Below the pieces are notes generated by a model, which saw only the letters and a program-made list of their open reading frames with translations, was not told where the DNA came from and made no database searches. The position numbers were made by a program, and so were the translations under genes. 64,000 bases of DNA from Bacilli bacterium (GTDB lineage Bacteria > Bacillota_I > Bacilli_A > RF39 > UBA660), in NCBI GenBank assembly GCA_017511375.1, contig JAFWKJ010000009.1, positions 3,407-67,406 on the forward strand, given 5' to 3'. Below are positions 5,129 to 58,362 of this stretch, piece by piece; position 1 is the stretch's first letter, and each line of letters opens with the position of its first letter.

Positions 5129-8100
5129 GTGATTGTAAGGTTAATCAAGAAAAAGAAAATTTACAACTTCACTTTACCAACTAAAATCTCCGGAAATTAT
5201 TGGATTACTGATAATGATTATTTGGGAAATGTACGTAACCTAATTAACGTAGAAGAAGATAATGGAAAATGGAAGATAAAATCAGACTTCGAAACCAAAA
5301 TCATGTCAGGAGAACAAGAAGTTGAATCTGCATACTTAAAAGATTATAGTCTTTATTTCTTAAAGATAAACACAGATAACGAATATGTGATTTTATACTG
5401 CTCCCCAACAGTAGATAAAGAAAGTTATCGATTGAGATTAACCGGTAAAAATGAATTATTGATTGGTAATTACAACAAAGCCCATATATGCTTTAACTAT
5501 CCTTTGGTATCAAGGGAACACGCAAAACTAATTTATAATAACGGTGTTTGGATTGTACAAGATCTAAACAGTAAATACGGAACATATGTAAATAGTATCG
5601 CTATCACGGCAAGACAATTACAATATGGTGATATTATTTTTATCATGGGATTAAGAATTATCGTTTTAAAAGATACATTGATTATCAATAATATTGGTAG
5701 CAATTTAAGTATTGATAATAAAGTATTAGAATCCATTTCATCGCTTACTCAAAAACAAACAGAGTTTGATAATCCAGATGAAGAAACGATTGAGTTCTAT
5801 AAAGAGGATGATTATTTCTATAGAGCCCCTCGTTTTAAAACAGGAATTGTGGATGCTAATATTGTAATTGATAATCCACCAAATAAGTTGGATGAGGAAG
5901 ATAATACGCCATTAATATTTACATTAGGGCCAATGCTTACAATGGCAATGTCTTCTATGTCTACAGGAATCAGTGCTCTACAAGGTGTCATTAATGGAAC
6001 AACAGATATGGCAACAGTTGCTCCAACATTAGCGATGACAGGGGCAATGATGGCAACGATGTTATTATGGCCAAACCTACAAAAGAAATTCCAAAAGAGA
6101 CAAGCTAAAAGAGCTGAAAAAGAAAGAAAAGTGAAATATCTAAAATATCTTGAAAGTAAGAAAGAAAGTATTCAATCTGAAATGAAGATTCAAAGACAAA
6201 TCTTGATTGATAATTATCTTCCATTAGATCAAACAAAAGAAATTGTTTATCAAAAGAAAAGAAACTTATGGGAAAGAGAAATAGGTCAAGAAGACTTCTT
6301 AGATTTAAGATTAGGAATTGGTTCTTCAGAACTAAGAGGTAAAATTAGTATTCCAGAAGAACACTTTGCTTTAAAAACAGATGATTTGTTAAAAGAAGTT
6401 TATAAAGTAGGAGCAGAATCAAGAACGCTAGAAAATGTACCAATTTCTTTAAACTTTATCAGTAGAAATATTGTAGCAATTATTGGAACTGCTACCAATA
6501 AAAAACAGTTTATTGATGGTTTGATATTACAAATCATTACTTATCATAGTTATGAAGATTTAAAAATTGTTGTCTTCACGAATAGTCAAAATGAAAGCAA
6601 TTGGGATTATTTAAAAGTAGCACCTCATTGCTGGAACAATGAAAAATCATTCCGTTATTTTGCAACCAACTTAGATGAAGCAAAAGAAATTTCTTTGGAA
6701 CTTGAAAAAGAAATTCAAAGTAGAAAATTTAAAGACAATAATGGAAGAATGGAAATAAATGCAGAAGACTACAAGAACTATAGACCATATTATTTGATTA
6801 TCACAGATGATTATAAATCTGTAAGAGATATTGAATTACTAAAAGATGTTGGCTCAATGCCAGTAAACTATGGTTTCAGTTTGGTTGTAATAAGTCCAAG
6901 ATTAGTTAATATTCCAAATGAATGTAATGCTTTCATCAGTATTGGTGATAAAAAATCAGGAGTATTTGAAAATGAATTAGTTGCAAACAAACAAAAAGAG
7001 TTTGTGGCAGACTTTGATCCTACACTTAACATCTATGAGTGTTGTAAGATTATCGCAAATATTCCAATTGATATTGCAAAAGAAGCCCAAGCTTTACCAA
7101 CTTCTGTTTCTTTCCTTGAAATGTGTAATGTTGGTATGGTTGAGCAGTTAAATATTCTAAATAGATGGAAAGTAAATGATCCAACGAAATCACTACAAAC
7201 ACCAGTTGGATTTGATAAGTCTAGAGAATTATTTAAACTAGACCTTCATGAAAAAGCACATGGACCACATGGTTTGATTGCAGGTATGACAGGTTCCGGT
7301 AAATCTGAATTTATCATTACATACATTCTATCAATGGCGATGAACTATCACCCAAATGAAGTTACATTCATCTTAATAGACTACAAAGGTGGAGGACTAA
7401 CAGGAGCCTTTGAAAATAGAGAAACAGGAATGAAACTACCACATCTTGCAGGAACCATTACCAACTTAGATACGGTAGAGATGAACCGTTCCTTAGCTTC
7501 TATTCAATCCGAATTAAGAAAAAGACAAAGACAGTTTAATGAAGCGAGAGATAAATTAAATGAAAGTACGATTGATATCTATAAATATCAAAACCTATAT
7601 AGACGTGGATTAGTAGATAAACCAATCTCTCACTTATTCATTATTTCAGATGAGTTTGCAGAGTTGAAAGACCAAAGACCAGAATTCATGGAACAACTAA
7701 TTTCAACAGCACGTATCGGACGTTCTTTAGGTGTCCATCTAATTCTAGCAACCCAGAAACCAAGTGGTGTTGTTAATGATCAAATCTGGTCAAACTCAAA
7801 ATTCCGTGTATGTTTAAGGGTACAAGATAAATCAGACAGTATGGATATGATTAAATGTCCAGATGCTGCCGAATTGAAAAATGTTGGTAGATTCTTCCTA
7901 CAAGTTGGTTATAATGAGTTGTTTGCCATGGGACAAGCTGCCTGGGCAGGAGCACAATATTATCCAACAGAAAAAAGAAAGAAGAAAGTGGACCAATCTA
8001 TCACAATTGTGGACAATGTAGGAAGCCCAATTAAATCATTAGATACAAAACAAAATGATATTAAGATTCAATCTCAAGGAGAAGAAATTACAAATATTAT

Positions 8101-9700
8101 TAAATATATTGTAGGAGAAGCAGAAAAAGAACACATTGAGGTTGAACAATTATGGCTTCCAAGAATACCAGATGTAATATATACAGATGCCTTGAAAGAA
8201 AAATATAATTATAAACCAGTCAAGAATGTAATTAATCCAATTATTGGAGAATATGATGATCCTGATAATCAAGCACAAAATATTTTAACCCTTCCATTAT
8301 CTGATTTAGGAAATACGATTATCTTTGGTTCCGCAGGAAATGGTAAAGAGTTGATGCTTGCAGGTATTATCTATTCAAGTATTACTTCTCATAATTCAAA
8401 TGAAGTTAACTTCTACATTTTAGACTTTGGTGCAGAAACGCTAACTATGTTTAAGAATGCACCACATGTAGGAGAAGTAATTCTATCTTCTGATGCTGAA
8501 AAGATTGCGAATACATTTAAGATGATTGACTCTGTCTTAGAAGAAAGAAAGAAAATCTTCACAGACTACAATGGATCATTTGATTTCTACATCAACCATG
8601 GTGGAAAACAAATTCCTCTTATTGTAGTTATTATCAATAACGTAGAAGCCTTCTTAGAAACTTATAGTGACTATGAAGATTTAATTGGTCAAATGACAAG
8701 AGATTGTTTGAAATATGGTATTATCTTCATATTTACTACGAATGGACCTAATACAGTACGTTATCGTTTAAGACAAAACTTTAGACAAAACGTTGTATTA
8801 CAATTCAATGATCCAGGAGACTATTCTTCTGTCATACCAGGAGTAAGAAAGAAGGAGCCTTCTAAAGCATATGGACGTGGTATGATTTTATTAGATGCCA
8901 TTTTCGAATTCCAAACAGCCTATGTATATAAAGAAGAAAAAATGTCTGAGTATATCAAGGTTGTCTGTGAAAAACTTAACAAAGTATGTGATTATCAAGC
9001 TGCACCAATTCCAATTCTTCCAGAAGTTGTTAATCGCGAATATGTAGCACAATACTTAGGAGCTTACAAGCACTTACCAGTGGGTGTTACGAAAGATACA
9101 CTTGAAATTGCAACAGTCGATCTTGGTAACAAGTTTATGTATAACATTACAGGAGACGATGTTACAGCAGAACCTGCCTTCTTACGTGGTGTTATGAACA
9201 ACTTGTTAGCTGTTCCAAATACTGAAATCATTGTAATGGATGCAAGTGGAATCTTTAATGAAATCACAGATCAAAATATACTATATAGTACGGATAGTTG
9301 TGAAACAGGTATTGCGCGACTAAAAGATGTAGTTACACAAAACGATCCTACAAAGACAATTTTTGTATTTATCATGGGAATTAATACATTGCTTGGTAAG
9401 ATGATGGCAACAGAAAAAACAGATTTCCTTGATTTGATTACAAATTCAAAACAATTAGGAAATGTCCGCTATATCATAGTTGATAATATTGATGTAATTA
9501 AGAGTATCAATTTTGAAGCATGGTATAAAGGAAATGCAGATATGGCAGAAGGTATTTGGATTGGTAATGGTATAGGTAACCAATTCACATTAAAGGTTAC
9601 AACAAACTCTCGTGTCCTAAGACAAGAAGTAGATCCAGGTTTTGGATATGTCATTAGAAAAGGAAAAGCAGAGTTAATGAAACTAATGTCTGACGAATAG
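5129..9700 (+). CDS. essC: Type VII secretion system (T7SSb) FtsK/SpoIIIE-family ATPase EssC/YukB
   Basis: N-terminal FHA-like region (LLIGN..SREHAKL..VQDLNSKYGTYVN). TM pair around aa 265-315. First ATPase domain has Walker A GMTGSGKSE and Walker B FIISDEFAEL. Two further degenerate P-loop domains follow (GSAGNGKE). GTG start lies after GGGGTGA. Confidence 0.9.
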   Translation: MIVRLIKKKKIYNFTLPTKISGNYWITDNDYLGNVRNLINVEEDNGKWKIKSDFETKIMSGEQEVESAYLKDYSLYFLKINTDNEYVILYCSPTVDKESYRLRLTGKNELLIGNYNKAHICFNYPLVSREHAKLIYNNGVWIVQDLNSKYGTYVNSIAITARQLQYGDIIFIMGLRIIVLKDTLIINNIGSNLSIDNKVLESISSLTQKQTEFDNPDEETIEFYKEDDYFYRAPRFKTGIVDANIVIDNPPNKLDEEDNTPLIFTLGPMLTMAMSSMSTGISALQGVINGTTDMATVAPTLAMTGAMMATMLLWPNLQKKFQKRQAKRAEKERKVKYLKYLESKKESIQSEMKIQRQILIDNYLPLDQTKEIVYQKKRNLWEREIGQEDFLDLRLGIGSSELRGKISIPEEHFALKTDDLLKEVYKVGAESRTLENVPISLNFISRNIVAIIGTATNKKQFIDGLILQIITYHSYEDLKIVVFTNSQNESNWDYLKVAPHCWNNEKSFRYFATNLDEAKEISLELEKEIQSRKFKDNNGRMEINAEDYKNYRPYYLIITDDYKSVRDIELLKDVGSMPVNYGFSLVVISPRLVNIPNECNAFISIGDKKSGVFENELVANKQKEFVADFDPTLNIYECCKIIANIPIDIAKEAQALPTSVSFLEMCNVGMVEQLNILNRWKVNDPTKSLQTPVGFDKSRELFKLDLHEKAHGPHGLIAGMTGSGKSEFIITYILSMAMNYHPNEVTFILIDYKGGGLTGAFENRETGMKLPHLAGTITNLDTVEMNRSLASIQSELRKRQRQFNEARDKLNESTIDIYKYQNLYRRGLVDKPISHLFIISDEFAELKDQRPEFMEQLISTARIGRSLGVHLILATQKPSGVVNDQIWSNSKFRVCLRVQDKSDSMDMIKCPDAAELKNVGRFFLQVGYNELFAMGQAAWAGAQYYPTEKRKKKVDQSITIVDNVGSPIKSLDTKQNDIKIQSQGEEITNIIKYIVGEAEKEHIEVEQLWLPRIPDVIYTDALKEKYNYKPVKNVINPIIGEYDDPDNQAQNILTLPLSDLGNTIIFGSAGNGKELMLAGIIYSSITSHNSNEVNFYILDFGAETLTMFKNAPHVGEVILSSDAEKIANTFKMIDSVLEERKKIFTDYNGSFDFYINHGGKQIPLIVVIINNVEAFLETYSDYEDLIGQMTRDCLKYGIIFIFTTNGPNTVRYRLRQNFRQNVVLQFNDPGDYSSVIPGVRKKEPSKAYGRGMILLDAIFEFQTAYVYKEEKMSEYIKVVCEKLNKVCDYQAAPIPILPEVVNREYVAQYLGAYKHLPVGVTKDTLEIATVDLGNKFMYNITGDDVTAEPAFLRGVMNNLLAVPNTEIIVMDASGIFNEITDQNILYSTDSCETGIARLKDVVTQNDPTKTIFVFIMGINTLLGKMMATEKTDFLDLITNSKQLGNVRYIIVDNIDVIKSINFEAWYKGNADMAEGIWIGNGIGNQFTLKVTTNSRVLRQEVDPGFGYVIRKGKAELMKLMSDE

Positions 9701-19962: not shown

Positions 19963-21324
19963 TTAATTATCTTTTTCATTGAATAAAACTAGAGGTTTAA
20001 TCACTCTTTCGGGAATGCTTGTCTCTAGAAAATCCATACCCCAATCTATTTTATAATCAGGTAAGAATTTTGTTTTGAAAGGCATGGTTCTAGGCATGAT
20101 AACGATTCCTTCAAATGTCCCAATCATTTTTAAATCTTCAATGGTAACAAGAGGAACTAATTCATGATCAACCATCTGCATTCCACAATACTTAGAAACT
20201 TCTTGAAGGGTATAAATATCATCGCTTAGTAAATAGATTAAATTTCCAAAACACATTTTTAGAATTTCTGCTTCTTCCTTAGAATACATACTACATAAGT
20301 GAACATAACTACGGATAGTAACAGTAATTTTTATTTTGATAGAACGGCAATTTTCAATCATACGAGAAAAGTCTCGAATAGGAACCATACTATCAAATTC
20401 ATCTAATAATACATGAAAGTTTTTCTCACTTTTACCATAAAAATTCACATAATCAACAATTTGATTTACAAGTAGAGGAATCAAATTATTACAATAATTA
20501 GATACTCCACTAATGATAAATAAAGCACTTGGCTTTTTAGATAATCCATCTAAATCAAAATCACTATTAGATAACATATTAGATAAGTTTTCGCGAGAAA
20601 TATATTTCTTAATCTTTTGATTGAAGACAGCTAAGATACTTCCTCTAGTCTCAGGAGGTGCTTTTAAAGTACCTACTAAATTTAAGTAAATCTTACTAGA
20701 AGGAGATATCTTCTCCATAAACTTTTCACAGTTTCCTTTACTATTAACTTGATAACTTAAAGAAGCAATACTTTCTAGATGAACTTCTTCTTCCTTAGCA
20801 TTTTCAATTAAATATAAGGAAATACCAGTAAAGTAATCAATAACAGAATTAATCCAGAAAGGATCTGCGTTGGCTTCTGTTCTTTCGTAGAACAAGTAAT
20901 AGGCAACATCCTCTAAACATTTAATTGCTTTATCTTTTTCACCAGCGTGATATAACTCATAAGGCATTTTAAGAGGATTCCAACTATTCCCATATTTAGC
21001 ATCTTCAAAGTCTAATACACATACTTCATATCCTTTTTCTTTTAAAGCCTTAGCACATTTGCTATACAATTCTCCTTTAGGATCATTCACAACGATGCTT
21101 TCTCCTGCCATCATAGCTAATTTAAGCATCGGAAGTATCATAGATTGTGTTTTACCACTACCTGTACTTCCAATAATTAAATTGTGAGCTTCTCTTGTAT
21201 CAATATATAAATACTTATCATCATAAGTAATAGGCGTTCCTGATACCTCGACCCCTGTTTCTAAGTTAACCCCTTTAAGTTTTTCAACCACTTCATCTTT
21301 TGTGGCCCATCTTGCATAACTCAT
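19963..21324 (-). CDS. VirD4/TraG/TraD-like (type IV coupling protein family) ATPase, soluble form
   Basis: Walker A IIGSTGSGKTQS, VNDPKGELY block, Walker B HVLLDEFDS. The start is set at ATG 21324 after GGAGAGAGA. The tracked 54-aa N-terminal extension overlaps the divergent araC-type gene and has no RBS. Confidence 0.65.
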   Translation of the reverse strand: MSYARWATKDEVVEKLKGVNLETGVEVSGTPITYDDKYLYIDTREAHNLIIGSTGSGKTQSMILPMLKLAMMAGESIVVNDPKGELYSKCAKALKEKGYEVCVLDFEDAKYGNSWNPLKMPYELYHAGEKDKAIKCLEDVAYYLFYERTEANADPFWINSVIDYFTGISLYLIENAKEEEVHLESIASLSYQVNSKGNCEKFMEKISPSSKIYLNLVGTLKAPPETRGSILAVFNQKIKKYISRENLSNMLSNSDFDLDGLSKKPSALFIISGVSNYCNNLIPLLVNQIVDYVNFYGKSEKNFHVLLDEFDSMVPIRDFSRMIENCRSIKIKITVTIRSYVHLCSMYSKEEAEILKMCFGNLIYLLSDDIYTLQEVSKYCGMQMVDHELVPLVTIEDLKMIGTFEGIVIMPRTMPFKTKFLPDYKIDWGMDFLETSIPERVIKPLVLFNEKDN

Positions 21325-21398
21325 AATCTCTCTCCTTTCACTTACCATTAAAACACATGGTTTGTAAACATTTTTAAACAATAACGACTTTTTTATGT

Positions 21399-21404
21399 TA
21401 TAAT
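21399..21404 (+). promoter_or_regulatory. Extended -10 promoter element (TGTTATAAT) for the AraC-type gene
   Basis: TG at 21396-21397 and TATAAT at 21399-21404, 16 nt upstream of the ATG region. Confidence 0.4.
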
Positions 21405-21419
21405 GAAAATGGTGATAGG

Positions 21420-21881
21420 ATGAATCAATCATTAGTAAGACAAATACTAGCATATTTAGATGATAATATATATGCCAAGATATCACTAGAAGAATTATCT
21501 AGACTTTTTTATTTTCATAAGGACTATATTATGAGAGTATTTAAAAAAGAATTAAATATGACAATTATTGATTATATGAATAAAAAGAGAATTTTTGCTT
21601 CTTTAGAAGAACTAAAAGAAACACAAGATAGTATTTTAAAAGTTGCTTTAATGCATGGATTTACTTCTCAAGAATACTATACAGAAACATTTATAAAAGT
21701 AATGGGAGTAAATCCCAATACCTATAGAAAATTCACAAAAAACCATCCTTCAGTAACAGAAGATAATACAAACAAGATAAGAAAAAATCTAACCGATTTA
21801 AAATATCAGTTAGATCAAATTACAAAATATAAACAAAATGTTCCAAAAGAAACAGTAAAACAATTAACAAGATATCACTAG
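21420..21881 (+). CDS. AraC-family HTH transcriptional regulator (DNA-binding domain only)
   Basis: Two HTH units: ISLEELSRLFYFHKDYIMRVFKKELNMT..YMNKKR and ..VALMHGFTSQEYYTETFIKVMGVNPNTYR. Confidence 0.75.
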   Translation: MNQSLVRQILAYLDDNIYAKISLEELSRLFYFHKDYIMRVFKKELNMTIIDYMNKKRIFASLEELKETQDSILKVALMHGFTSQEYYTETFIKVMGVNPNTYRKFTKNHPSVTEDNTNKIRKNLTDLKYQLDQITKYKQNVPKETVKQLTRYH

Positions 21882-23324: not shown

Positions 23325-24758
23325 ATGGCAAAAGAAGTAAAAGTTGTTAATACAGATGACAATAAAAAACATGGAACAAATAGATGTCCACAATGTGGAG
23401 CAAGTGATGTTACCTATAATATTAAAAAAGGAAAATTAGTTTGTAATTACTGTTATACGGAATTTGATGCTGAAGAATTGGAAGGGATTGAAAAAGATGT
23501 TAAAAAACTAAAAGGAGAAACTAGAACAAGTGGAACAAAAGATATTGATGAAAATGCAAATGATATCGTAACGCTTAAATGTAGTGGTTGTGGAGCAGAG
23601 GTTGTTATTAATACAGCAGAAGCCATGAATGCAAGATGTCACTGGTGTAGAAGTATTTTATCTATTAATTCCCAAATAGAAAATGGATCTTTACCAGATG
23701 TTGTACTTCCATTTAAATTAACCAAAGAAGAAGCCCAAACCAAAATAGATGGATTTGCTAAAAAGAGAAAGTTTTTTGCAAATAAACTATTTAAAAAAGA
23801 ATTCACCACCAACAATATCATGGGAGTTTATTTCCCTTATATGTTAGTAGATGCTAATTGTCATGGAAAGTTTTCAGGAGAAGGAGGAGAAGTAGCTAGA
23901 TCTTATCAAATTTCTAAAGGAAAAAACTCCAAAGGAGAAGAAGAATATGAAACAGTATACGATATAGATATGTATGATGTTCAAAGAGTATTTGATATAG
24001 CAATTGACGATTTATCCATAGAGTCTAGTGCTGATAAATTAGATAAAAATAATAAAGATAAGACAACGAATGTCATTAATTCTGTTATGCCATTTGATAC
24101 AGAAAACTGTGTAAAATATAAAGGAAACTATCTTGTAGGATACACTTCAGAAAAAAGAGATATTAATGTTTCAAATATTGAAGCAAAAGTAGATCAAGAA
24201 TTACAAGATGTCGCAAGATATGCCTTAAATAAAGATTTGACGAAATATGATGCAGGCGTACATTGGGAAAATGAAGAATTTGAAATCAAGGGAAAACAAT
24301 GGGTATCTGCTTATCTTCCCGTTTGGTTATATTCATATCAAGATCCTGGGAAACTATTACATTATGTAGCTGTAAATGCAAGAACGGGAGAAACAATGGG
24401 AAGTATTCCTATGAATAAAGGAAGATTAGCAATTATCTCTATCTTACTATTCCTTGCCTTCTTTATTATGGCTTTAATATTTGGAGAAAAAGACGAGGTT
24501 AGAGGGGCTTTAATCATTTTGGGATTAATCACAGGATTGGTATTCTATATTGCAAAATACTCTAAATATAGAAACAAAGGTGCTAGACACAAATATGAAA
24601 TAGAAACCAAAAACAAACTGGATATCATATCGAGAGTAGATAATGAAAAATACACCAAGAGAGAGTGCTCTTCCGATACAATTGATTTCGCAAACAATCA
24701 TATGATTTATGGAGAAGGAACATCTGTTATTCCAAAAGAAAAGAAGGAAAAAGAGTAA
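23325..24758 (+). CDS. Double zinc-ribbon protein with C-terminal TM pair, function unknown
   Basis: CPQCG..CNYC and CSGCG..CHWC pairs. Two hydrophobic helices near aa 385-430. TGTTATAAT promoter at 23290-23298. Confidence 0.45.
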   Translation: MAKEVKVVNTDDNKKHGTNRCPQCGASDVTYNIKKGKLVCNYCYTEFDAEELEGIEKDVKKLKGETRTSGTKDIDENANDIVTLKCSGCGAEVVINTAEAMNARCHWCRSILSINSQIENGSLPDVVLPFKLTKEEAQTKIDGFAKKRKFFANKLFKKEFTTNNIMGVYFPYMLVDANCHGKFSGEGGEVARSYQISKGKNSKGEEEYETVYDIDMYDVQRVFDIAIDDLSIESSADKLDKNNKDKTTNVINSVMPFDTENCVKYKGNYLVGYTSEKRDINVSNIEAKVDQELQDVARYALNKDLTKYDAGVHWENEEFEIKGKQWVSAYLPVWLYSYQDPGKLLHYVAVNARTGETMGSIPMNKGRLAIISILLFLAFFIMALIFGEKDEVRGALIILGLITGLVFYIAKYSKYRNKGARHKYEIETKNKLDIISRVDNEKYTKRECSSDTIDFANNHMIYGEGTSVIPKEKKEKE

Positions 24759-24761
24759 AAT

Positions 24762-24787
24762 AAAAAGACATTAAATGTCTTTTTTTA
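24762..24787. terminator. Bidirectional terminator between convergent genes
   Basis: AAGACAT/ATGTCTT stem with flanking A- and T-runs. Confidence 0.65.
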
Positions 24788-25796
24788 TTTCTTCGAAAAA
24801 TGGCATAAAAGCACTTGGCAAGGCATAGTTCTTTTCAATGTCAGAAATATTTACCCATTGGTAACTTCCAAACTCTTTTTCCACTTCTATTTTATAACTA
24901 TTCATAAACCATTTCTTATGAGTGAAAATATGAATATTCGTAATACTTAATTCTATAGAAGAAATATGAGGAATTCGTTTTCTTACTTCTTCATAGGTTA
25001 GGAAACCTTTTTCATTAGGAAACTCCCACATATTCTTAAGCAAACCAACTTCTCTCTTATGAAGAGCAAACTTATCACCACATTTTAATAAAAATAAAGT
25101 ATACTCCTCTTCAGATACCTTAGTTTTTACATTTCGTCTAGGTATCAAACATTCTCGATTCTTTAGATGCGCCATACAGTGGTATTTTAGAGGACATAAA
25201 TCACATTTGGGCATTCCTCCTGGAATACATATAACTTCTCCTAATTCCATAATTCCTTGATTAAAATTTCCGCTATCTTGAGGAAGATTCTTTTTTAGTT
25301 CTTCTCCGATTCTTTTTTGAATTTTTGAATCAGCGATATCCCAATCTTTATTATTAATGCGACAAAAGACTCTCATAACGTTTCCATCTACCGCCACTTC
25401 TGGGAGATGAAAGCAGATGGAAGAGATGGCTCCTGCCGTATATTTACCAATTCCTGGAAGGGATAAGATTTCCTCATAAGTTTGAGGGAATTTTCCATGA
25501 TACTCTTTCATAATAATGATAGCTGCCTTTTTTAGATTTCTAGCACGATTATAATAGCCTAGACCTTCCCATAGTTTCAAGAGTTCATCTTCTTCCACTT
25601 CACTTAGTGCTTGAATCGTAGGAAGTCTCTTCATAAAGCGATGATAGTAATCGATAACAGCCTCAATTCTTGTTTGCTGAAGCATGATTTCACTAATCCA
25701 TACGTGATAAGGATCTATATCTTTTCTCCAAGGCAAGTCTCGCTTGTTTTCTAAATACCAATTTAAGATTAAATCAACATATTTTTTCATAAACAA
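24771..25796 (-). CDS. mutY: A/G-specific adenine DNA glycosylase MutY
   Basis: HhH-GPD block LPGIGKYTAGAISS, 4Fe-4S Cys cluster C..PKCDLCPLKYHC, and a C-terminal NUDIX-like domain. Confidence 0.85.
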   Translation of the reverse strand: MFMKKYVDLILNWYLENKRDLPWRKDIDPYHVWISEIMLQQTRIEAVIDYYHRFMKRLPTIQALSEVEEDELLKLWEGLGYYNRARNLKKAAIIIMKEYHGKFPQTYEEILSLPGIGKYTAGAISSICFHLPEVAVDGNVMRVFCRINNKDWDIADSKIQKRIGEELKKNLPQDSGNFNQGIMELGEVICIPGGMPKCDLCPLKYHCMAHLKNRECLIPRRNVKTKVSEEEYTLFLLKCGDKFALHKREVGLLKNMWEFPNEKGFLTYEEVRKRIPHISSIELSITNIHIFTHKKWFMNSYKIEVEKEFGSYQWVNISDIEKNYALPSAFMPFFEEIKKDI

Positions 25797-25875
25797 ATTA
25801 TAACATAATAATATATTTTTCTTTATTTTTTTGCTATAATTATCTTAATAGTAAGAGTAGAAGGAAGTGGGATGT

Positions 25876-27288
25876 ATGAATGAGGAGGAAAAAATAGAAA
25901 CAACTACGGAAGAACCTGTTATGATTGCGGAAAACATTGATGAGATGTCTCAAGAAGAATTGGCATCTATCACAACTTCCGTTCCTGTTGTGAGTGAAGA
26001 AACTGTAGAAATACCTCAAACAACTCCGGAGATGGACATTCCAAACAATATGCCAGATTTGGGAAATAGAGAAGAGAATAGTACAGAGGGGAACGTACCT
26101 ACATTTCAACAAATTCCAGGAGTAGAAGAAGAAAAGAAAGAGGAAGAAAAGGTAAAACAACCTGAGGAAGAGGAAAAAACGTCTTTTGCTGAAATCCCTA
26201 CAACTCTTACGGATATGTATCAAGCAAAACCTTCTTCAGAACAGAATGCTTCTTTAGAACCAAAGCCAAATCAAGGAGAAGAAACTGCACAACAAGAGGA
26301 ATCGGAAGAGGAAGAGGAATATGAAGATTCTCCAAAAAAGAAGAGCAAATTAGTGCCATTAATCATTTTTGGAATTGTATTGATTGCTGTGGTAGTCGTG
26401 GGAGTTATAGGATTAAGGACAAGAGGAGAAAAAGGACCTATTAAATTACTTAGACCAGAAAGACTTGCCAACAGTAATACAAACATTGCAGTTTTAGGAG
26501 ATGCTTCAACACCTAATGCGCAAGTAGCCGCAACAATTCTTAAGAAGTTAGGAACGGAAACAGCTGTAGAGGAAATTGAAAAGTGCCCTTCCCAAGAAAC
26601 CTATGGTGTGGAGTATGGCCTTTTCACATCTGAAATAAAAACACAAAATAATAATCTATATAATATAAATTATTCTTGTGGGAAAGAATCTACAATGAAA
26701 TATTTATTAGTAAGTGAGGGAGAACAAACCGTAGATGGAGCAATCATTGTTTTAAGCTCTAATACAGGAGTATCCTCAGAAATAAAAGATTATCTACATA
26801 CTCTAAATAGAATTGGAATAAAGAAAGTAGTGATCTACATCATAGATGAGGGGAACTCTACACAAGTTGAAGAAGAAATAAAAGGGGTATTAGAAAATCA
26901 AGGATTTGATAACGCAAACACACCGATTGTGAAAGGATCAACTACAGATGAAGAAAAGATAGAAACACTAATTTCTAAAGCAGAAAAGTGGATCAAAAAA
27001 GAAACATCTTATAAAGAACCATCTGTTGTACCATCTTATAAAACAATGAAATTATTTACGACATTTTTAGTAGATAAAAACATAGATAATTTATCATTTA
27101 CCATTAATAAAGTGGATTATAAAGCAAAGGTAACATTAGAAGAAGGTCAGGATGGAATAAAAGCAGGAGAAACACAAGAAATCACTATAGAGTTAGAAGA
27201 GGAAATCCCTGCTGTAACAGGAATGCGTGTTATCGTAAAAGAAGGAGATACTCTAGTAGGAATTGGAGTTATTTCAGAACTAAGTTAA
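25876..27288 (+). CDS. Membrane-anchored EF-Tu-like protein with degenerate GTPase motifs (acidic N-terminal region, TM, pseudo-G-domain, domain-III-like C-terminus)
   Basis: Hand alignment to EF-Tu: [24 protein letters not shown] vs [47 protein letters not shown] vs [37 protein letters not shown] vs [31 protein letters not shown] vs GLRFAIREGGRTVGAGVV. ATG 25876 follows AAGGAAGTGGG, and GTG 25867 is the alternative start. Confidence 0.6.
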   Translation: [470 protein letters not shown]

Positions 27289-27303
27289 GGAAGGAGGGAT
27301 AAA

Positions 27304-28029
27304 ATGAAAAAGATGAAAATGGTTTTATTCGGAATAGTATTATTACCTCTTATGATGATAACAGTTCATGCAGCTTCTATTCCATATGCGTGGGTTGTTG
27401 GAGGAGAAAAATTAACAGGAGCAAATGAACAGAATAGTGCTAAAACTGCTACCCAAGTAAAAGAAAGAAGTGACGTAACACTAACCCTTAATAATTATAA
27501 TGGTGGACAACTTGAATTAACTTGTTATGGAACCTGTGTTAAGGCAGATTTTATTATTGAGTTAGTAGGGGACAATGTTATTAAGGCAGATGATATAGGA
27601 ATCAAAGGATTATCAATGGATAACATTCAATTTAAGGGAGAGGGAAAACTAACAATTAAAGCACCAACTCCTATAGAAGGCGCTTCTGATACCAATCCAT
27701 TAGTAATTGAACCCAATAAAAAAGTAGAACAAACTGAGACAACAGAAGAAGTTGAGACAATAGGGGCAAAAGAAAAAGAGGAAGAACCTTTAAAGGAAGA
27801 AGAAAGTATCGCAATTGAGAGACCATCTACAACAAAGAATAATGATATTACACTTTTTGCTTTAGGAATTGCTACAGGACTTGGAGCTGTACTTGTATTA
27901 GGACTTTTGATGAAATTGTCTACGAAATCTAAAAATTGTGTATCTTCCCCAAAGGAGGAATCAAAAGAAGACAAGGAATCTAAAGACGACAGCGAAGATA
28001 ATGAAGACAAGAAAGAACCAGAAGAATAA
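27304..28029 (+). CDS. Secreted, C-terminally membrane-anchored protein with acidic tail
   Basis: Signal peptide MKKMKMVLFGIVLLPLMMITVHA and a C-terminal TM ITLFALGIATGLGAVLVLGLL. Lies 15 nt downstream of the EF-Tu-like gene with RBS AAGGAGGG. Confidence 0.5.
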   Translation: MKKMKMVLFGIVLLPLMMITVHAASIPYAWVVGGEKLTGANEQNSAKTATQVKERSDVTLTLNNYNGGQLELTCYGTCVKADFIIELVGDNVIKADDIGIKGLSMDNIQFKGEGKLTIKAPTPIEGASDTNPLVIEPNKKVEQTETTEEVETIGAKEKEEEPLKEEESIAIERPSTTKNNDITLFALGIATGLGAVLVLGLLMKLSTKSKNCVSSPKEESKEDKESKDDSEDNEDKKEPEE

Positions 28030-28102
28030 GTCAATTACCATAAAAAAATAAAATATCCACAATTTTTGTGGATATTTTTGTTATAATTAAATAGGTGATA
28101 AT

Positions 28103-29980: not shown

Positions 29981-30069
29981 AAGATAACAATAGTTATCTT
30001 TTTTATTGCTTCAAGAATGAAACTTTTCTAATTTCATTTAGAGTGTTATACTATCCATAGGTGAGTAGA

Positions 30070-30618
30070 ATGGATGAAAATGTGAAACGATTCAAAGAAG
30101 GTATTTTTTCATTAAACACAAGAAGGTTTGGAAAAGTGGCAGAACTCATGATACAAAAACTATATGGATTAGAGGACCCAAATAGTAATGCTTATGACCT
30201 ACTTACAAACAATAACCAAAGAGTAGAAGTGAAGTTTTCTAAAGTATTAAAAAAATGCCCTTCTAAAATAGACGCCAAAAATGCCATGAAACAAATTTTA
30301 GCATCAACGCTTGAAAGAAGATTTTTAAGTTTTGAGAAAGCAAAAACTAGTAATTTTAATTGTAACATCCAACAAGTGAAACCAATAGAATTTGATTGGT
30401 TATATTATGGCTGTTTCTTCGAAGATAAAATTTTGATATGTAAGATACATTCAAAAGAATTAATTGGAAATGCAGAGATATATTATTCTGAACACCAACA
30501 TAGAGGAAATGTGGGAGAAGGACAATTCCATATTACGGATAACAATATAGAAACACACCTAAATAAGTATTTTGTAACATGGTTAACTTATGAGGATTTA
30601 TATCAAATGTTTTCATAA
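30070..30618 (+). CDS. Candidate type II restriction endonuclease partner of the adjacent methylase
   Basis: 182 aa, convergent with and 27 nt from the N6A methylase. Possible PD-(D/E)XK-like D..EVK (AYDLLTNNNQRVEVKFSK). No other homology is recognisable by eye. Confidence 0.4.
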   Translation: MDENVKRFKEGIFSLNTRRFGKVAELMIQKLYGLEDPNSNAYDLLTNNNQRVEVKFSKVLKKCPSKIDAKNAMKQILASTLERRFLSFEKAKTSNFNCNIQQVKPIEFDWLYYGCFFEDKILICKIHSKELIGNAEIYYSEHQHRGNVGEGQFHITDNNIETHLNKYFVTWLTYEDLYQMFS

Positions 30619-30644
30619 AAAAAGAATCCATAATGGATTCTTTT

Positions 30645-32444
30645 TTAATACATCTCTCTTAAGTAATTAATTTCTTCTTCTGTTAAAGACAATTGTTTAT
30701 AAATAATATCTTCTATTTCTTCATTGTATTTATTCTCTTGATTTAATTTAGTCAATTCGATGATCTTTTCTTTTGTTTTTTCATCAAAATCAAAGATACA
30801 GAAAGACTGAATGTGGCTTTTTAATACTTTGTGTGTTTTATAAACCTCATCAAAGAATAATTGTGTAACTCTAGAATTTAATATGGCAGATACATAGTAA
30901 TAATCATAATATTTAATATTGATAATATTGGCACTATTAAGAGTTAAGTAACCTTTTGTTTCTACTGCAAAGCATAATTTGTTTCCTATAAACTTATATA
31001 CAAGTTTTTCTTTTCGATAATTTTCTTCAGGAGCAACCTGTTGTAGTTTGTCTTTTTCAAATACAATATAATTTTTAATAAGACTATAATCAAAATTATA
31101 TCTTGTAATTTCTTTTCCACTAATAATAGGTTCAGATCCTTCTATTTGAGTATCGTGTAAGTACTCTTTATTATTTCCTGTAACAATTCCTAAACTAAAT
31201 TGAGAGTTTTTATCGTCTAAACAAAAATACTTTGTATTTTTTATTTTCTTAATAATATTTTTAGGGATAGCAGAAGGAATTAAGAAATTACAATGTGGAT
31301 TTTCTAAAAATTGATCTTGTTCAATTTTATATCGATTATAGATACAAGTATGATGAAGAGTTTTTGCTTTAGTAACTTTCATGATAATGACATCTGTAAC
31401 AACTTCTGTAAATTCTCTTCCCATATTCTTAATATAATTGATATTGTAATCCAATAAATAATTTCGTATATCTTCATGTACCGCAATATTTAAAATACTA
31501 CTTGGTAAAACAAAACTTAATACGCCATCTTCATTTAATAAATCAAAAGACCTTTGAATAAACTGTGCAAAGGAATCTTGCTTAGCAAACAACTTATCAT
31601 ATTTTTGTGCTAATTCTTCTTTTTCTTTCTTAGTATATTTAATACCCCAAGGAGGATTTCCAATCACCACATCAAATCTTTCTTGAATATCTCCCAATAA
31701 ATAGTCCTCACATCGTATATTCAATTCATTGTAATCAATGTTGTCATCTAAATTATATAGATTGATTTTGGCAATTAATATGGCAATGTCATCGATATCA
31801 TAGCCATATAAAGAATCAATGATTTCTTTCGTAGTGAAATGATTATCTTTCATCTTTTTAAACATTTGAATTAAGAAGTTACCACTACCACAACCTGGAT
31901 CTAGTACTTTCATATTTTCATATACGTCTACTGACTCAACCATCTTTTTCACAACAGAAAAGGGAGTATAAAAGATACCTTTACTATCTTTTTTTCCTTG
32001 AGATAATAAAGACATATATAAACAACCTAAGAAATCATCACTCTCATCATAAGAAATAATAATCTCGTTAAATTCTTTCATAAACGCTTCGTTATTACTT
32101 CCTTCTCCTAAAAGATCAAAGGCTTCTTGCGGAATTCTTTTGTCTACAAGAACCTTTTTGATGGTTTCTATTAAAAGTTCATGATTAGAAATATGATAAG
32201 CCTCTTGTAAGTCCATAATATGAGTAATAATATGAGGAATTTTCTTATCTTTTACATAACTAGTTGGAATAATATGATTCGTACTATTTCTTTTATTTCT
32301 TCTAACATTCTTTTTAGATTTAATAATTCTTTCAATATCTTCTACATCTATTTCTTCTATACTAGAAATATAACCTAGTTTTTTCCAATTTCTAAGAGTA
32401 GCTTCACTAATACTATAGCGATTCATAATCTCTAATTTTTTCAT
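30645..32444 (-). CDS. N6-adenine DNA methyltransferase (gamma class, Eco57I/TaqI-like) with N-terminal MerR-like HTH
   Basis: Motif I LDPGCGSGNFL and motif IV VIGNPPWG. Large C-terminal target-recognition region. N-terminal YSISEATLRNWKKLGYIS HTH. Confidence 0.85.
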   Translation of the reverse strand: MKKLEIMNRYSISEATLRNWKKLGYISSIEEIDVEDIERIIKSKKNVRRNKRNSTNHIIPTSYVKDKKIPHIITHIMDLQEAYHISNHELLIETIKKVLVDKRIPQEAFDLLGEGSNNEAFMKEFNEIIISYDESDDFLGCLYMSLLSQGKKDSKGIFYTPFSVVKKMVESVDVYENMKVLDPGCGSGNFLIQMFKKMKDNHFTTKEIIDSLYGYDIDDIAILIAKINLYNLDDNIDYNELNIRCEDYLLGDIQERFDVVIGNPPWGIKYTKKEKEELAQKYDKLFAKQDSFAQFIQRSFDLLNEDGVLSFVLPSSILNIAVHEDIRNYLLDYNINYIKNMGREFTEVVTDVIIMKVTKAKTLHHTCIYNRYKIEQDQFLENPHCNFLIPSAIPKNIIKKIKNTKYFCLDDKNSQFSLGIVTGNNKEYLHDTQIEGSEPIISGKEITRYNFDYSLIKNYIVFEKDKLQQVAPEENYRKEKLVYKFIGNKLCFAVETKGYLTLNSANIINIKYYDYYYVSAILNSRVTQLFFDEVYKTHKVLKSHIQSFCIFDFDEKTKEKIIELTKLNQENKYNEEIEDIIYKQLSLTEEEINYLREMY

Positions 32445-56856: not shown

Positions 56857-56982
56857 AATGAAACCTCCTGACATTTGTTTTAATACTATAAATATATTAT
56901 AATTTATTTGAGATAAAAGATCAACTTACAATTTTATTTTAACCTATTTTTTATGCTAAAACAAGATCGAAAGGAGAAAAAA

Positions 56983-58362
56983 ATGAAAAAAGGTAGATTA
57001 TACAATAGACAAGAGATTGAAGTTATATCAAAATCTGCTATTGGAAAGACAATGAATGATATTCTAAAAGAAGAATTAGTGTCAATCGGTGATATAGACA
57101 ATAAAGGTGGATTAGGACAGTTGATTGAACAATATTTATTTGGAATACAAACAAACAATGAATCTGAACCTGATTTTATGCCTGCTGGTATAGAATTAAA
57201 AGTAACTCCATACAAGAAAATAAAAGGGGGTAAATTATCAGCTAAAGAAAGACTTGTATTAAATATTATTAATTACATGGAAGAATGGAAAAATGATTTT
57301 AGACATAGTCACTTTTGGATGAAAAATAATACAATACAATTATTATGGTATTTATGGGAACCAAATAAGGATTTTAAAGATTTTAAAATCACTCACGAAA
57401 AATTAATGGAACTAGTTCAAAGTGAAGACATAAAGCAAATAGAAAATGACTGGAATTATATTGTAAGCAAAATTAAAGAAGGAAAGGCACATGAACTGTC
57501 AGAAGCAGATACAATGTATTTGGGTACATGTACAAAGGGAGTCAACTCAAGTTCAACGAGAGAGCAACCATTTAGTGATATAAAAGCAATGCAACGAGCT
57601 TTTTGCTTTAAAAATTCATATATGACACAAATGGTAAGAAAAATAATAGGGGATTATAGTGATGTTGAAAAAGTTCTAAAAGGAACAAATAATACATTCA
57701 ACGAATATGTCAATAACGTTATTGAAAAATATAAAGGTAAAACTCAAAAAGAATTAATGAAAGAATTCAGTATAGATTCTAAAGCTAAGAATATTAATAG
57801 TATGCTTATAAGTAGAATGTTTAATGTCACAAGTAAACTAGCAGATACCGAGGAATTTCAAAAAGCAAACATTATTCCTAAGACAATAAGAATCGAAGAA
57901 AGTGGAAGAATCAAAGAATCAATTTCATTTCCTTCTTTTAAATTTAATGAAATAATTGAACAAGAATGGGAAACTTGTGATTTAAGAGAAGAATTAGAAA
58001 CAACTAAATATATGTTCTTTGTATTTAAAAAGGAAAAAGGTGAATATGTTTTTAAGGGTATCAAATTATGGAATATGCCAGAAACTGACATTGAAACATC
58101 TGTAATGGAAATGTGGAAAAAAACATATAATACAATTTTAAATGGTAATATAGTTAGATACATAAAAGATGGTAAAAGAAAAACAAATTTTGTTGGAATG
58201 AGTGAGAATGAAGTATGTCATGTTCGTCCTCACGGAAGAGATTCAAGAGATACATTTAAGTTACCAGTAGCTGATAAATTAACAGGTGCTACTGAATATA
58301 CTAAACAATGTTTTTGGATTAACAGCAACTATATAAAAGGAATTTTTGAAGAGTTTAATTAG
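56983..58362 (+). CDS. Sau3AI/MutH-family type II restriction endonuclease
   Basis: GGLGQLIEQYLFG..ESEPDFMPAGIELKVTP carries the MutH/Sau3AI D..E-x-K catalytic block. Two-domain length. Divergent from the m5C methylase. ATG follows AAAGGAG. Confidence 0.8.
   Translation: MKKGRLYNRQEIEVISKSAIGKTMNDILKEELVSIGDIDNKGGLGQLIEQYLFGIQTNNESEPDFMPAGIELKVTPYKKIKGGKLSAKERLVLNIINYMEEWKNDFRHSHFWMKNNTIQLLWYLWEPNKDFKDFKITHEKLMELVQSEDIKQIENDWNYIVSKIKEGKAHELSEADTMYLGTCTKGVNSSSTREQPFSDIKAMQRAFCFKNSYMTQMVRKIIGDYSDVEKVLKGTNNTFNEYVNNVIEKYKGKTQKELMKEFSIDSKAKNINSMLISRMFNVTSKLADTEEFQKANIIPKTIRIEESGRIKESISFPSFKFNEIIEQEWETCDLREELETTKYMFFVFKKEKGEYVFKGIKLWNMPETDIETSVMEMWKKTYNTILNGNIVRYIKDGKRKTNFVGMSENEVCHVRPHGRDSRDTFKLPVADKLTGATEYTKQCFWINSNYIKGIFEEFN

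Follow-up and report, generated by a model that had tools for sequence, protein, structure and literature searches.

The window analysed here, a stretch of 64,000 nucleotides (nt) from contig JAFWKJ010000009.1 of a Bacilli bacterium (RF39; UBA660), to whose positions all feature coordinates refer, harbors a gene for a membrane protein of 470 amino acid residues (aa), which almost certainly is a pseudo-GTPase derived from elongation factor Tu (EF-Tu) and devoid of its domain II. The protein, hereafter the relic, consists of a long acidic N-terminal tail (25% Glu, net charge of -32, with the Lys cluster KKKSK at aa 154-158), one transmembrane (TM) helix and a degenerate EF-Tu module, arranged as follows:

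25876-27288, + strand: gene of the membrane-anchored EF-Tu relic, a predicted pseudo-GTPase of 470 aa (open reading frame [ORF] and profile matches).
25876-26349, + strand: acidic disordered N-tail, aa 1-158, ending in KKKSK and presumably cytoplasmic (composition, orthologue alignment).
26350-26415, + strand: single TM helix, aa 159-180, read as a signal anchor (sequence prediction).
26479-26991, + strand: relic of EF-Tu domain I with the fold of a G domain, aa 202-372, motifs G1-G5 destroyed (alignments, hhalign, structural model).
26992-27033, + strand: short linker of 14 aa, aa 373-386, in place of the entire domain II (alignments; dip in the predicted local distance difference test score, pLDDT).
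27034-27285, + strand: EF-Tu domain III beta-barrel, aa 387-470 (Pfam D3, phmmer, hhalign, structural model).

The EF-Tu models of NCBIfam matched the full-length protein with an E value of 5e-15 and its soluble part with 1e-15, but the scores of about 53-57 bits did not reach the curated cut-offs of 449-522 bits (522.4 for TIGR00485); being so far below them, the relic is not an EF-Tu orthologue. In Pfam, matches to GTP_EFTU (E 2.6e-7) and GTP_EFTU_D3 (E 2e-3) were obtained, the latter rising to E 1e-8 to 1e-25 in relatives of the relic, and no match to the domain II model GTP_EFTU_D2 was found. Comparison with PDB sequences by phmmer returned EF-Tu (E 1e-15) in two stretches corresponding to domains I and III. 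The alignment by hhalign of a nine-member family profile with a profile of seven EF-Tu proteins gave 99.8% probability (E 1.3e-27 over 275 columns), interrupted by one long gap exactly spanning domain II; the deletion extends from about residue 205 to about residue 293 of EF-Tu, and 3 of the ~90 domain II alignment columns are occupied in the relic. An AlphaFold2 model of aa 169-470, built from an input alignment that included true EF-Tus, had a pLDDT of 82.5 and a predicted template modelling score (pTM) of 0.73, and its first 50 Foldseek matches in the PDB were all EF-Tu (best E 1e-22, template modelling score 0.81 by query).

All five G motifs are altered or lost. G1 reads GDASTPNA instead of GHVDHGKT (aa 208-215, nt 26497-26520), with neither Lys nor Thr; G2 has changed from RGITI to YGVEY; G3, (H)VDxPGH in EF-Tu, has become INYSCGK (aa 265-271, nt 26668-26688), with loss of the catalytic His; G4 has passed from NKxD to I(I)DEG (nt 26839-26853); and G5, canonically GSAL, is cut down to GS, after which residues are deleted. 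Lys and Thr of the P-loop, Thr of G2, Asp and Gly of DxxG, the catalytic His and NKxD are all absent. Because every nucleotide-binding and catalytic motif is gone, EF-Tu-like GTP binding or hydrolysis and delivery of aminoacyl-tRNA are not to be expected and, to judge from its sequence, the relic cannot act as a GTPase or tRNA carrier in the way EF-Tu does. With the G-domain fold apparently kept, according to alignments and model, and these motifs lost, it would be classed as a pseudo-GTPase. Two sister lineages, P0004 and P0021, still carry GHVDTPK/R and MPQTRE and thus represent intermediate stages of the decay.

These results bear on an earlier note on this DNA, made by reading the sequence alone. 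The EF-Tu derivation that it proposed was borne out by the HMMER profiles, with both GTP_EFTU and GTP_EFTU_D3 significant, by hhalign and by the fold comparison. A single TM anchor was likewise found, at aa 159-180, and the absence of domain II, noted there as apparent, agrees with the missing Pfam match, the nearly empty alignment columns and the single hhalign gap. No G motif turned out to be intact on proper alignments; the nucleotide ranges given for the motifs were right within a few bases, and the framework segments described as retained align as claimed in the phmmer comparison with PDB EF-Tu sequences.

The relic gene is flanked by the following genes and signals:

24771-25796, - strand: gene of a mutY-type glycosylase, divergent; a syntenic neighbour outside the system (Pfam match).
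25832-25840, + strand: putative promoter, an extended -10-like element TGcTATAAT in the 79-nt gap between mutY and the relic gene (element read directly).
25860-25867, + strand: ribosome-binding site (RBS) GAAGGAAG, 8 nt 5' of ATG 25876 (read from sequence).
27290-27299, + strand: RBS GGAAGGAGGG of the downstream gene, within the 15-nt spacer (read from sequence).
27304-28029, + strand: gene of an apparently co-transcribed 241-aa protein, 15 nt after the relic stop (ORF).
28050-28088, + strand: bidirectional intrinsic terminator with a 13-bp stem and T run, 20 nt past the second stop (hairpin scan).

An alternative in-frame GTG lies upstream of the ATG, at 25867; the ATG at 25876 was taken as the start because all orthologues begin with MNEEEK and the RBS GAAGGAAG precedes it by 8 nt. 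A consensus promoter scan gave only weaker sites, which overlap TGcTATAAT. Since each gene has its own RBS, the spacing is 15 nt and one terminator is shared, the relic gene and the downstream gene look like a two-gene operon. The order MutY, relic gene, small surface protein is conserved, with mutY located upstream of the relic gene in seven of seven orthologous loci that could be read, and the neighbourhood, also conserved among relatives, is of housekeeping type (mutY, DUF1015, deaminase, HD). The relic gene is vertically inherited in uncultured rumen and gut Bacilli. A mobile-element origin was considered and rejected, as the gene order is a chromosomal one that persists even in divergent relatives; a role in a defence system was rejected too, the PADLOC defence models having matched neither the relic nor the downstream protein. 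The G+C content of the window is ~30%. The identical 470-aa protein occurs on 13 gut-metagenome contigs, and the read runs containing the sequence are gut-metagenome DNA, or of a type not known at low depth.

The protein encoded downstream has a signal peptide (aa 1-25), an all-beta ectodomain of ~110 aa with the invariant core LTLNNYNGGQL...C.GT, an acidic linker and a C-terminal TM helix (aa 182-203). Neither Pfam nor NCBIfam holds a family that covers it, its AlphaFold2 model was poor (pLDDT 55.5), and Foldseek found no structural match to that model (best E 3.4). A homologue follows the relic gene in five of seven loci of group A (the group of the window protein, defined below), including the deep-branching L104 (40% identity, E 1e-45). 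Members also occur without an EF-Tu-like neighbour, beside a dockerin protein (L010) and an ABC transporter (L013), and the family, which includes P0012-P0020, is one of unannotated small surface proteins with signal peptide, beta domain, low-complexity linker and C-terminal TM helix. The designation "obligate partner" was rejected, since the gene is missing from L098 and L105 and the family occurs away from EF-Tu-like genes; a functional link to the relic is likely, though not obligatory. The earlier note had placed this gene 15 nt after the relic stop, where the ORF 27304-28029 indeed begins, and had suggested an envelope-associated pair of which the second protein has a signal peptide, a C-terminal anchor and an acidic tail. 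Operon structure and the five loci with a partner speak for the pair, its absence from the other two and the solitary members of the partner family against it; signal peptide and C-terminal TM helix stood, but the acidic C-tail is specific to this window, the tails of the orthologues being short and basic.

An exhaustive HMMER profile search of 1.84 billion cluster representatives gave 785 matches at E < 1e-3. On inspection, about 40 of the top clusters proved not to be canonical EF-Tu, showing instead an N-tail, a Lys/Arg cluster, one TM helix and an EF-Tu-like module; they originate from uncultured gut and rumen Bacilli, and domain II is present in some and absent in others. A word-indexed protein search yielded three relatives only, its output being dominated initially by the low-complexity tail and afterwards by true EF-Tus; the family became visible through the exhaustive search alone. 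Scans of 185,579 GTDB species genomes with the single protein and with a four-sequence alignment of the close clade (A2) detected no close relative, returning three weak Sulfurimonas loci (22-32% identity) and chance pattern matches. Ten family clusters that were looked up are nameless in every source, and Pfam and NCBIfam contain no model specific to the family.

Four groups can be distinguished. In group A, which was monophyletic in 100 of 100 neighbour-joining (NJ) bootstraps, the tails are acidic, rich in Pro and 150-250 aa long, domain II is absent and the G motifs are dead. Members of group B also lack domain II; their tails have an N/Q-rich composition or an N-terminal zinc ribbon, and their P-loops are often near intact (GHEGHGKS); group C follows the same plan with domain II retained. 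Groups B and C (e.g., P0042, P0035, P0036, P0046) share N-tail, Lys/Arg cluster, TM helix and EF-Tu-like module with group A and form one NJ clade with it. Group C has in common with group A a pair of Cys residues, described below, but differs from it in keeping domain II, whereas group B differs in the near-intact P-loop and the absence of the Cys pair; the tails of both groups are without the four motifs found in group A. The NJ tree does not resolve the number of domain II losses.

Group D is scattered and has no TM helix; export-type signals, judged by eye as in all relatives, precede a module of domains I and III with largely intact G motifs. They comprise a lipobox in P0056 (LLGGC), Sec-like signals in P0101 and P0076, and twin-arginine motifs in P0090 (TRRELLK) and P0153 (TRREFL). 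The label "Tat-exported" (Tat, twin-arginine translocation) is a motif-level assignment for P0090 and P0153, the Tat hidden Markov model (HMM) staying below its threshold. These signal-bearing, domain-II-less EF-Tu-like proteins, all from other contigs (P0090/P0192, L103 5001-6038; P0153; P0056, L102 5001-5903; P0101; P0076), could be extracytoplasmic G proteins. Among further variants, L100 carries a "split" tandem (6001-8004): P0042 consists of N-tail, TM helix and domains I and III, and 15 nt behind it begins the gene of a 279-aa protein with near-identical N-tail and TM helix, domain II (Pfam D2, 5.8e-12) and domain III (D3, 1.5e-20). P0162 is full-length, domain II included, with a Sec-like signal peptide and a G1 degraded to GGNGAGGA, and P0127 is a full-length EF-Tu-like protein with domain II preceded by a lipobox.

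The tails of 12 full-length group A members were compared by counting regular-expression motifs. They differ in length and composition, yet share four short motifs in fixed order:

25909-25944, + strand: tail motif 1, [ED]EPVMI[AT]xNID[ED], aa 12-23 (12/12 members).
26050-26067, + strand: tail motif 2, MPDLGN ([AGM]P[DES]LG), aa 59-64 (11/12 members).
26095-26118, + strand: tail motif 3, VPTFQQIP (VP[TSA]FQ[QD]), aa 74-81, in one or two copies in relatives (12/12 members).
26209-26229, + strand: tail motif 4, TDMYQAK ([TM][DE][MT][YF]Q), aa 112-118 (8/12 members by the regular expression used).

Motif 4 is followed in group A tails by an acidic run and KKKK. Such a motif-bearing tail may be the signature of an interaction hub.

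Within the EF-Tu module, two Cys residues stand in place of residues of the former switches:

26584-26586, + strand: Cys237, relic of switch I, aligned with Ala52 of E. coli EF-Tu (alignment mapping).
26677-26679, + strand: Cys268, relic of switch II, aligned with Gly83 of E. coli EF-Tu, which is the Gly in DxxG (alignment mapping).

The modules of group A contain exactly two Cys, always in these two columns (13/13), and among 38 membrane members of the family both are present in 20, one in 1 and neither in 17. The two Cys thus co-vary. Both positions, Ala52 and Gly83 in EF-Tu, are close to the site of Mg2+ and the gamma-phosphate, which makes a disulfide between Cys237 and Cys268 that locks the former switches plausible.

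The membrane topology is probably N-in/C-out (type II), with the EF-Tu relic as ectodomain. Over 37 members, 141 Lys/Arg residues were counted in the N-terminal flank of the TM helix and 97 in the C-terminal one. In P0034, P0035 and P0041, no more than 4-10 residues precede the hydrophobic segment, as is usual in classical signal anchors, and P0040 and P0044 possess an N-terminal zinc ribbon above the Pfam threshold, a cytoplasmic module. It is this Lys/Arg excess on the N-terminal side, together with the short N-tails, the zinc-ribbon N-termini, the export signals of other relatives, the co-varying Cys pair and the signal peptide of the co-transcribed partner, that argues for the N-in/C-out arrangement. 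The outward orientation was no part of the earlier note, nor were the family membership, the four tail motifs and the two invariant Cys.

The best overall explanation, to which we give a probability of roughly 0.6, is that the gene encodes a type II membrane protein derived from a duplicated tuf gene, which displays an exported, nucleotide-independent relic of EF-Tu. Domain II has been excised, and domains I and III persist as one folding unit. The TM helix would serve as signal anchor and place the EF-Tu relic on the outer face of the membrane, where the ectodomain, locked by a disulfide between the two invariant Cys that replace switch I and II residues, would bind a ligand of the envelope or of the host without the need for nucleotide. 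In many cases it would do so jointly with the small beta-domain membrane protein of the same operon. The acidic tail of 158 aa would remain in the cytoplasm and recruit partners through its four short linear motifs, so that the relic would couple outside to inside in the manner of an adhesion protein, a scaffold or a receptor. A role of the binding/adhesion or scaffold type, although the most favoured guess at a function, should itself be considered somewhat unlikely. It is possible, although tentative, that the exported EF-Tu paralogues form a hitherto undescribed superfamily, in which the presence of EF-Tu at the surface has been hard-wired several times. As joint parts of that same tentative reading, export would proceed by TM signal anchors and by lipoprotein, Sec-like or Tat-like signals; forms with and without domain II would coexist, one locus being split into two membrane proteins; the G motifs would range from intact, in possible Tat-exported folded G proteins, to nucleotide-dead; and the window protein would be the end point, a disulfide-locked ectodomain signalling to a cytoplasmic tail.

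Several observations weigh against the best explanation or limit it. The fold match is not independent of sequence homology; the TM flanks of the window protein hold four Lys/Arg each, leaving the positive-inside rule neutral; and the linker from TM helix to domain is only ~20 aa, by which the domain of a walled cell would lie beneath the wall, awkward for a host adhesin. The P/T/E-rich tails resemble wall-spanning regions, which fits the opposite orientation, the partner is absent from two of seven loci, and the Tat HMM scored P0090 at 16.1 bits against a threshold of 16.7 and P0153 weakly, at 12.6 bits. In the opposite orientation (N-out/C-in), the relic would be tethered to the cytoplasmic face, with the acidic P/T/E-rich tail outside, and, free of nucleotide, would serve as decoy or scaffold to those partners of EF-Tu that engage its domains I and III (EF-Ts, MreB, ribosome-associated factors). 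EF-Ts touches EF-Tu at these two domains, and MreB is another binding partner of EF-Tu, an interaction that appears in the reference list of PMC6822514; the equal Lys/Arg counts, a tail composition rich in E, P, T and V like that of wall-spanning regions of Gram-positive surface proteins, and a short juxtamembrane linker suited to a membrane-proximal cytoplasmic module would also agree with this topology. We nevertheless hold it to be unlikely, since export of a strongly acidic N-tail of 150-250 aa without a signal peptide would be exceptional, Lys/Arg residues cluster N-terminally of the TM helix across the family, and relatives carry zinc-ribbon N-termini, N-tails of 4-10 aa or lipobox, Sec-like or Tat-like signals; the co-varying Cys pair, moreover, fits an oxidising compartment, and the conserved short linear motifs of the tail fit a cytoplasmic interaction hub.

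Far less probable is the idea that the ectodomain serves at the surface as decoy or receptor, whether for phage proteins or for contact-dependent or secreted toxins that require EF-Tu, and so provides protection or a docking site. Toxin-bound EF-Tu structures among the structural neighbours of the relic (Tse6-EF-Tu, PDB 4zv4; EF-Tu/CdiA/CdiI, PDB 7vmc) demonstrate that toxin-EF-Tu interfaces exist, and the EssC locus of a type VIIb secretion system (T7SSb) lies 16 kb upstream in the window; the idea is, however, purely speculative, neither protein shows a defence or toxin association, both being without a PADLOC match, and the housekeeping neighbourhood is vertically conserved. It is scarcely credible, finally, that the gene is a decaying functionless tuf duplicate with an accidental TM segment and tail. 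All catalytic motifs are gone, and the orthologue in L017 (7300-7800) has a frameshift near 7350, which leaves a 400-aa ORF and a 91-aa domain III ORF; the mutY gene beside it is shortened too, and the frameshift could be genuine, making a pseudogene, or stem from misassembly. Against decay, at least 13 clusters, with identities down to ~30%, retain an intact ORF, the Cys pair is invariant, the tail motifs are conserved in fixed order, RBS, operon structure and synteny are conserved, and the AlphaFold2 model folds confidently. Between the orthologues of L004 and L016, the nonsynonymous rate (dN) was 0.215 and the synonymous rate (dS) 1.35 (dN/dS ~0.16), and the proportions of nonsynonymous and synonymous differences between orthologues (pN/pS) were 0.197/0.592 in the tail and 0.178/0.655 in the EF-Tu-like part, i.e., the constraint is alike in both. 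As these substitution patterns indicate, the relic gene is under purifying selection, and decay is already contradicted by the conservation data.

Elsewhere in the window, an EssC-type ATPase of type VII secretion (TIGR03928, E 6e-293; 5129-9700), surrounded by small ORFs, marks the T7SSb locus. It is 86-88% identical to EssC of metagenome-assembled genomes of uncultured rumen "Bacilli bacterium", and relatives at greater distance are classified under Erysipelotrichaceae, Mycoplasmatota or Candidatus Faecimonas. Encoded at 19963-21486 (- strand) is a conjugative coupling protein like VirD4 (CD1115 family, E 9e-58), which may be what is left of an integrative element. A restriction-modification pair of type II (30061-32444) consists of a 185-aa ORF resembling a restriction endonuclease (PADLOC REase_II, 5.9e-9) and, convergent with it, a 599-aa N6-adenine methyltransferase with a TaqI-like specificity domain; a Sau3AI-family type II restriction endonuclease is encoded at 56953-58362 (E 1.7e-151). 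A 477-aa protein without family assignment (23325-24758) has two N-terminal zinc ribbons and C-terminal TM helices and is not conserved beside the relic in other loci; proteins combining zinc ribbon and TM helices recur near group A loci (L098, 8791-9351; L105, 6753-7340).

The earlier note was aware of no described membrane-tethered pseudo-GTPase of EF-Tu type, and full-text searches on membrane-anchored or pseudo-GTPase EF-Tu, EF-Tu-like paralogues, translational GTPase subfamilies, RF39, and Tat-exported or periplasmic GTPases brought up no description of such a protein; Pfam and NCBIfam, likewise, hold no family model. Forms with a transmembrane segment or signal peptide go unmentioned in a 2015 survey of translational GTPases, and a 2019 review of EF-Tu moonlighting treats EF-Tu as devoid of a signal sequence and lists no dedicated paralogues. 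No bacterial EF-Tu-derived pseudo-GTPase, membrane-anchored or exported, was found in this literature, and the relic would be, as far as could be found, the first bacterial membrane-anchored pseudo-GTPase originating from a translation factor. EF-Tu is among the most conserved and abundant bacterial proteins, and its presence at the surface, bound to host molecules, has been puzzling for decades, as it has neither an export signal nor an evident purpose there. What the family has lost is precisely what translation requires, GTPase motifs and the domain II that binds tRNA, and it has gained anchors or signals of its own, which suggests that the scaffold of domains I and III has an extracytoplasmic use in itself. 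Its members are minimal constructs made by nature, with which extracellular ligands of EF-Tu could be sought, the gradient from intact to destroyed motifs offers a step-by-step view of a GTPase becoming a pseudo-GTPase, and the family may include colonisation factors of uncultured gut and rumen Bacilli with reduced genomes, whose surface proteins are mostly not known.

Compared with known systems, the relic shares with canonical EF-Tu (TIGR00485) the homologous domains I and III with the same predicted folds, as well as the framework blocks VDGAI and NTPIVxGS and the C-terminal GxGVI strand. It differs by the absence of domain II, which forms the pocket for the aminoacyl-tRNA 3' end, by the destruction of G1-G5, and by the added 158-aa tail and TM helix; it is probably extracytoplasmic and without a role in translation. 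Pseudo-GTPases, e.g., the eukaryotic class-i representatives, are G-domain proteins that do not bind nucleotides. The relic resembles them in the retained fold, the degenerate P-loop, switches and NKxD and the presumed function as interaction scaffold, whereas those described are cytoplasmic and mostly eukaryotic. The C-terminal region of Ski7 was long suspected to be a pseudo-GTPase, but still binds GTP (PMC4509514). Canonical EF-Tu has repeatedly been found on bacterial surfaces binding host ligands, without a signal sequence (PMC6822514, PMC5962738, PMC5593925); in Mycoplasma, Staphylococcus, Lactobacillus and Leptospira, the surface form binds fibronectin, plasminogen, factor H or mucins (PMC6822514, PMC5962738, PMC5593925, PMC3842364). 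There, it is the translation factor itself that is displayed, having no signal sequence and reaching the surface by a route that is not known, whereas the relic is a separate degenerate paralogue with its own anchor and a presumably cytoplasmic tail, without domain II and GTPase motifs, to which a ligand-binding role could be ascribed by analogy. With an EF-Tu fold at the surface, host-associated and mostly low-G+C bacteria as carriers, and GTP irrelevant to the function, moonlighting surface EF-Tu would nonetheless be the nearest functional analogue of the relic.

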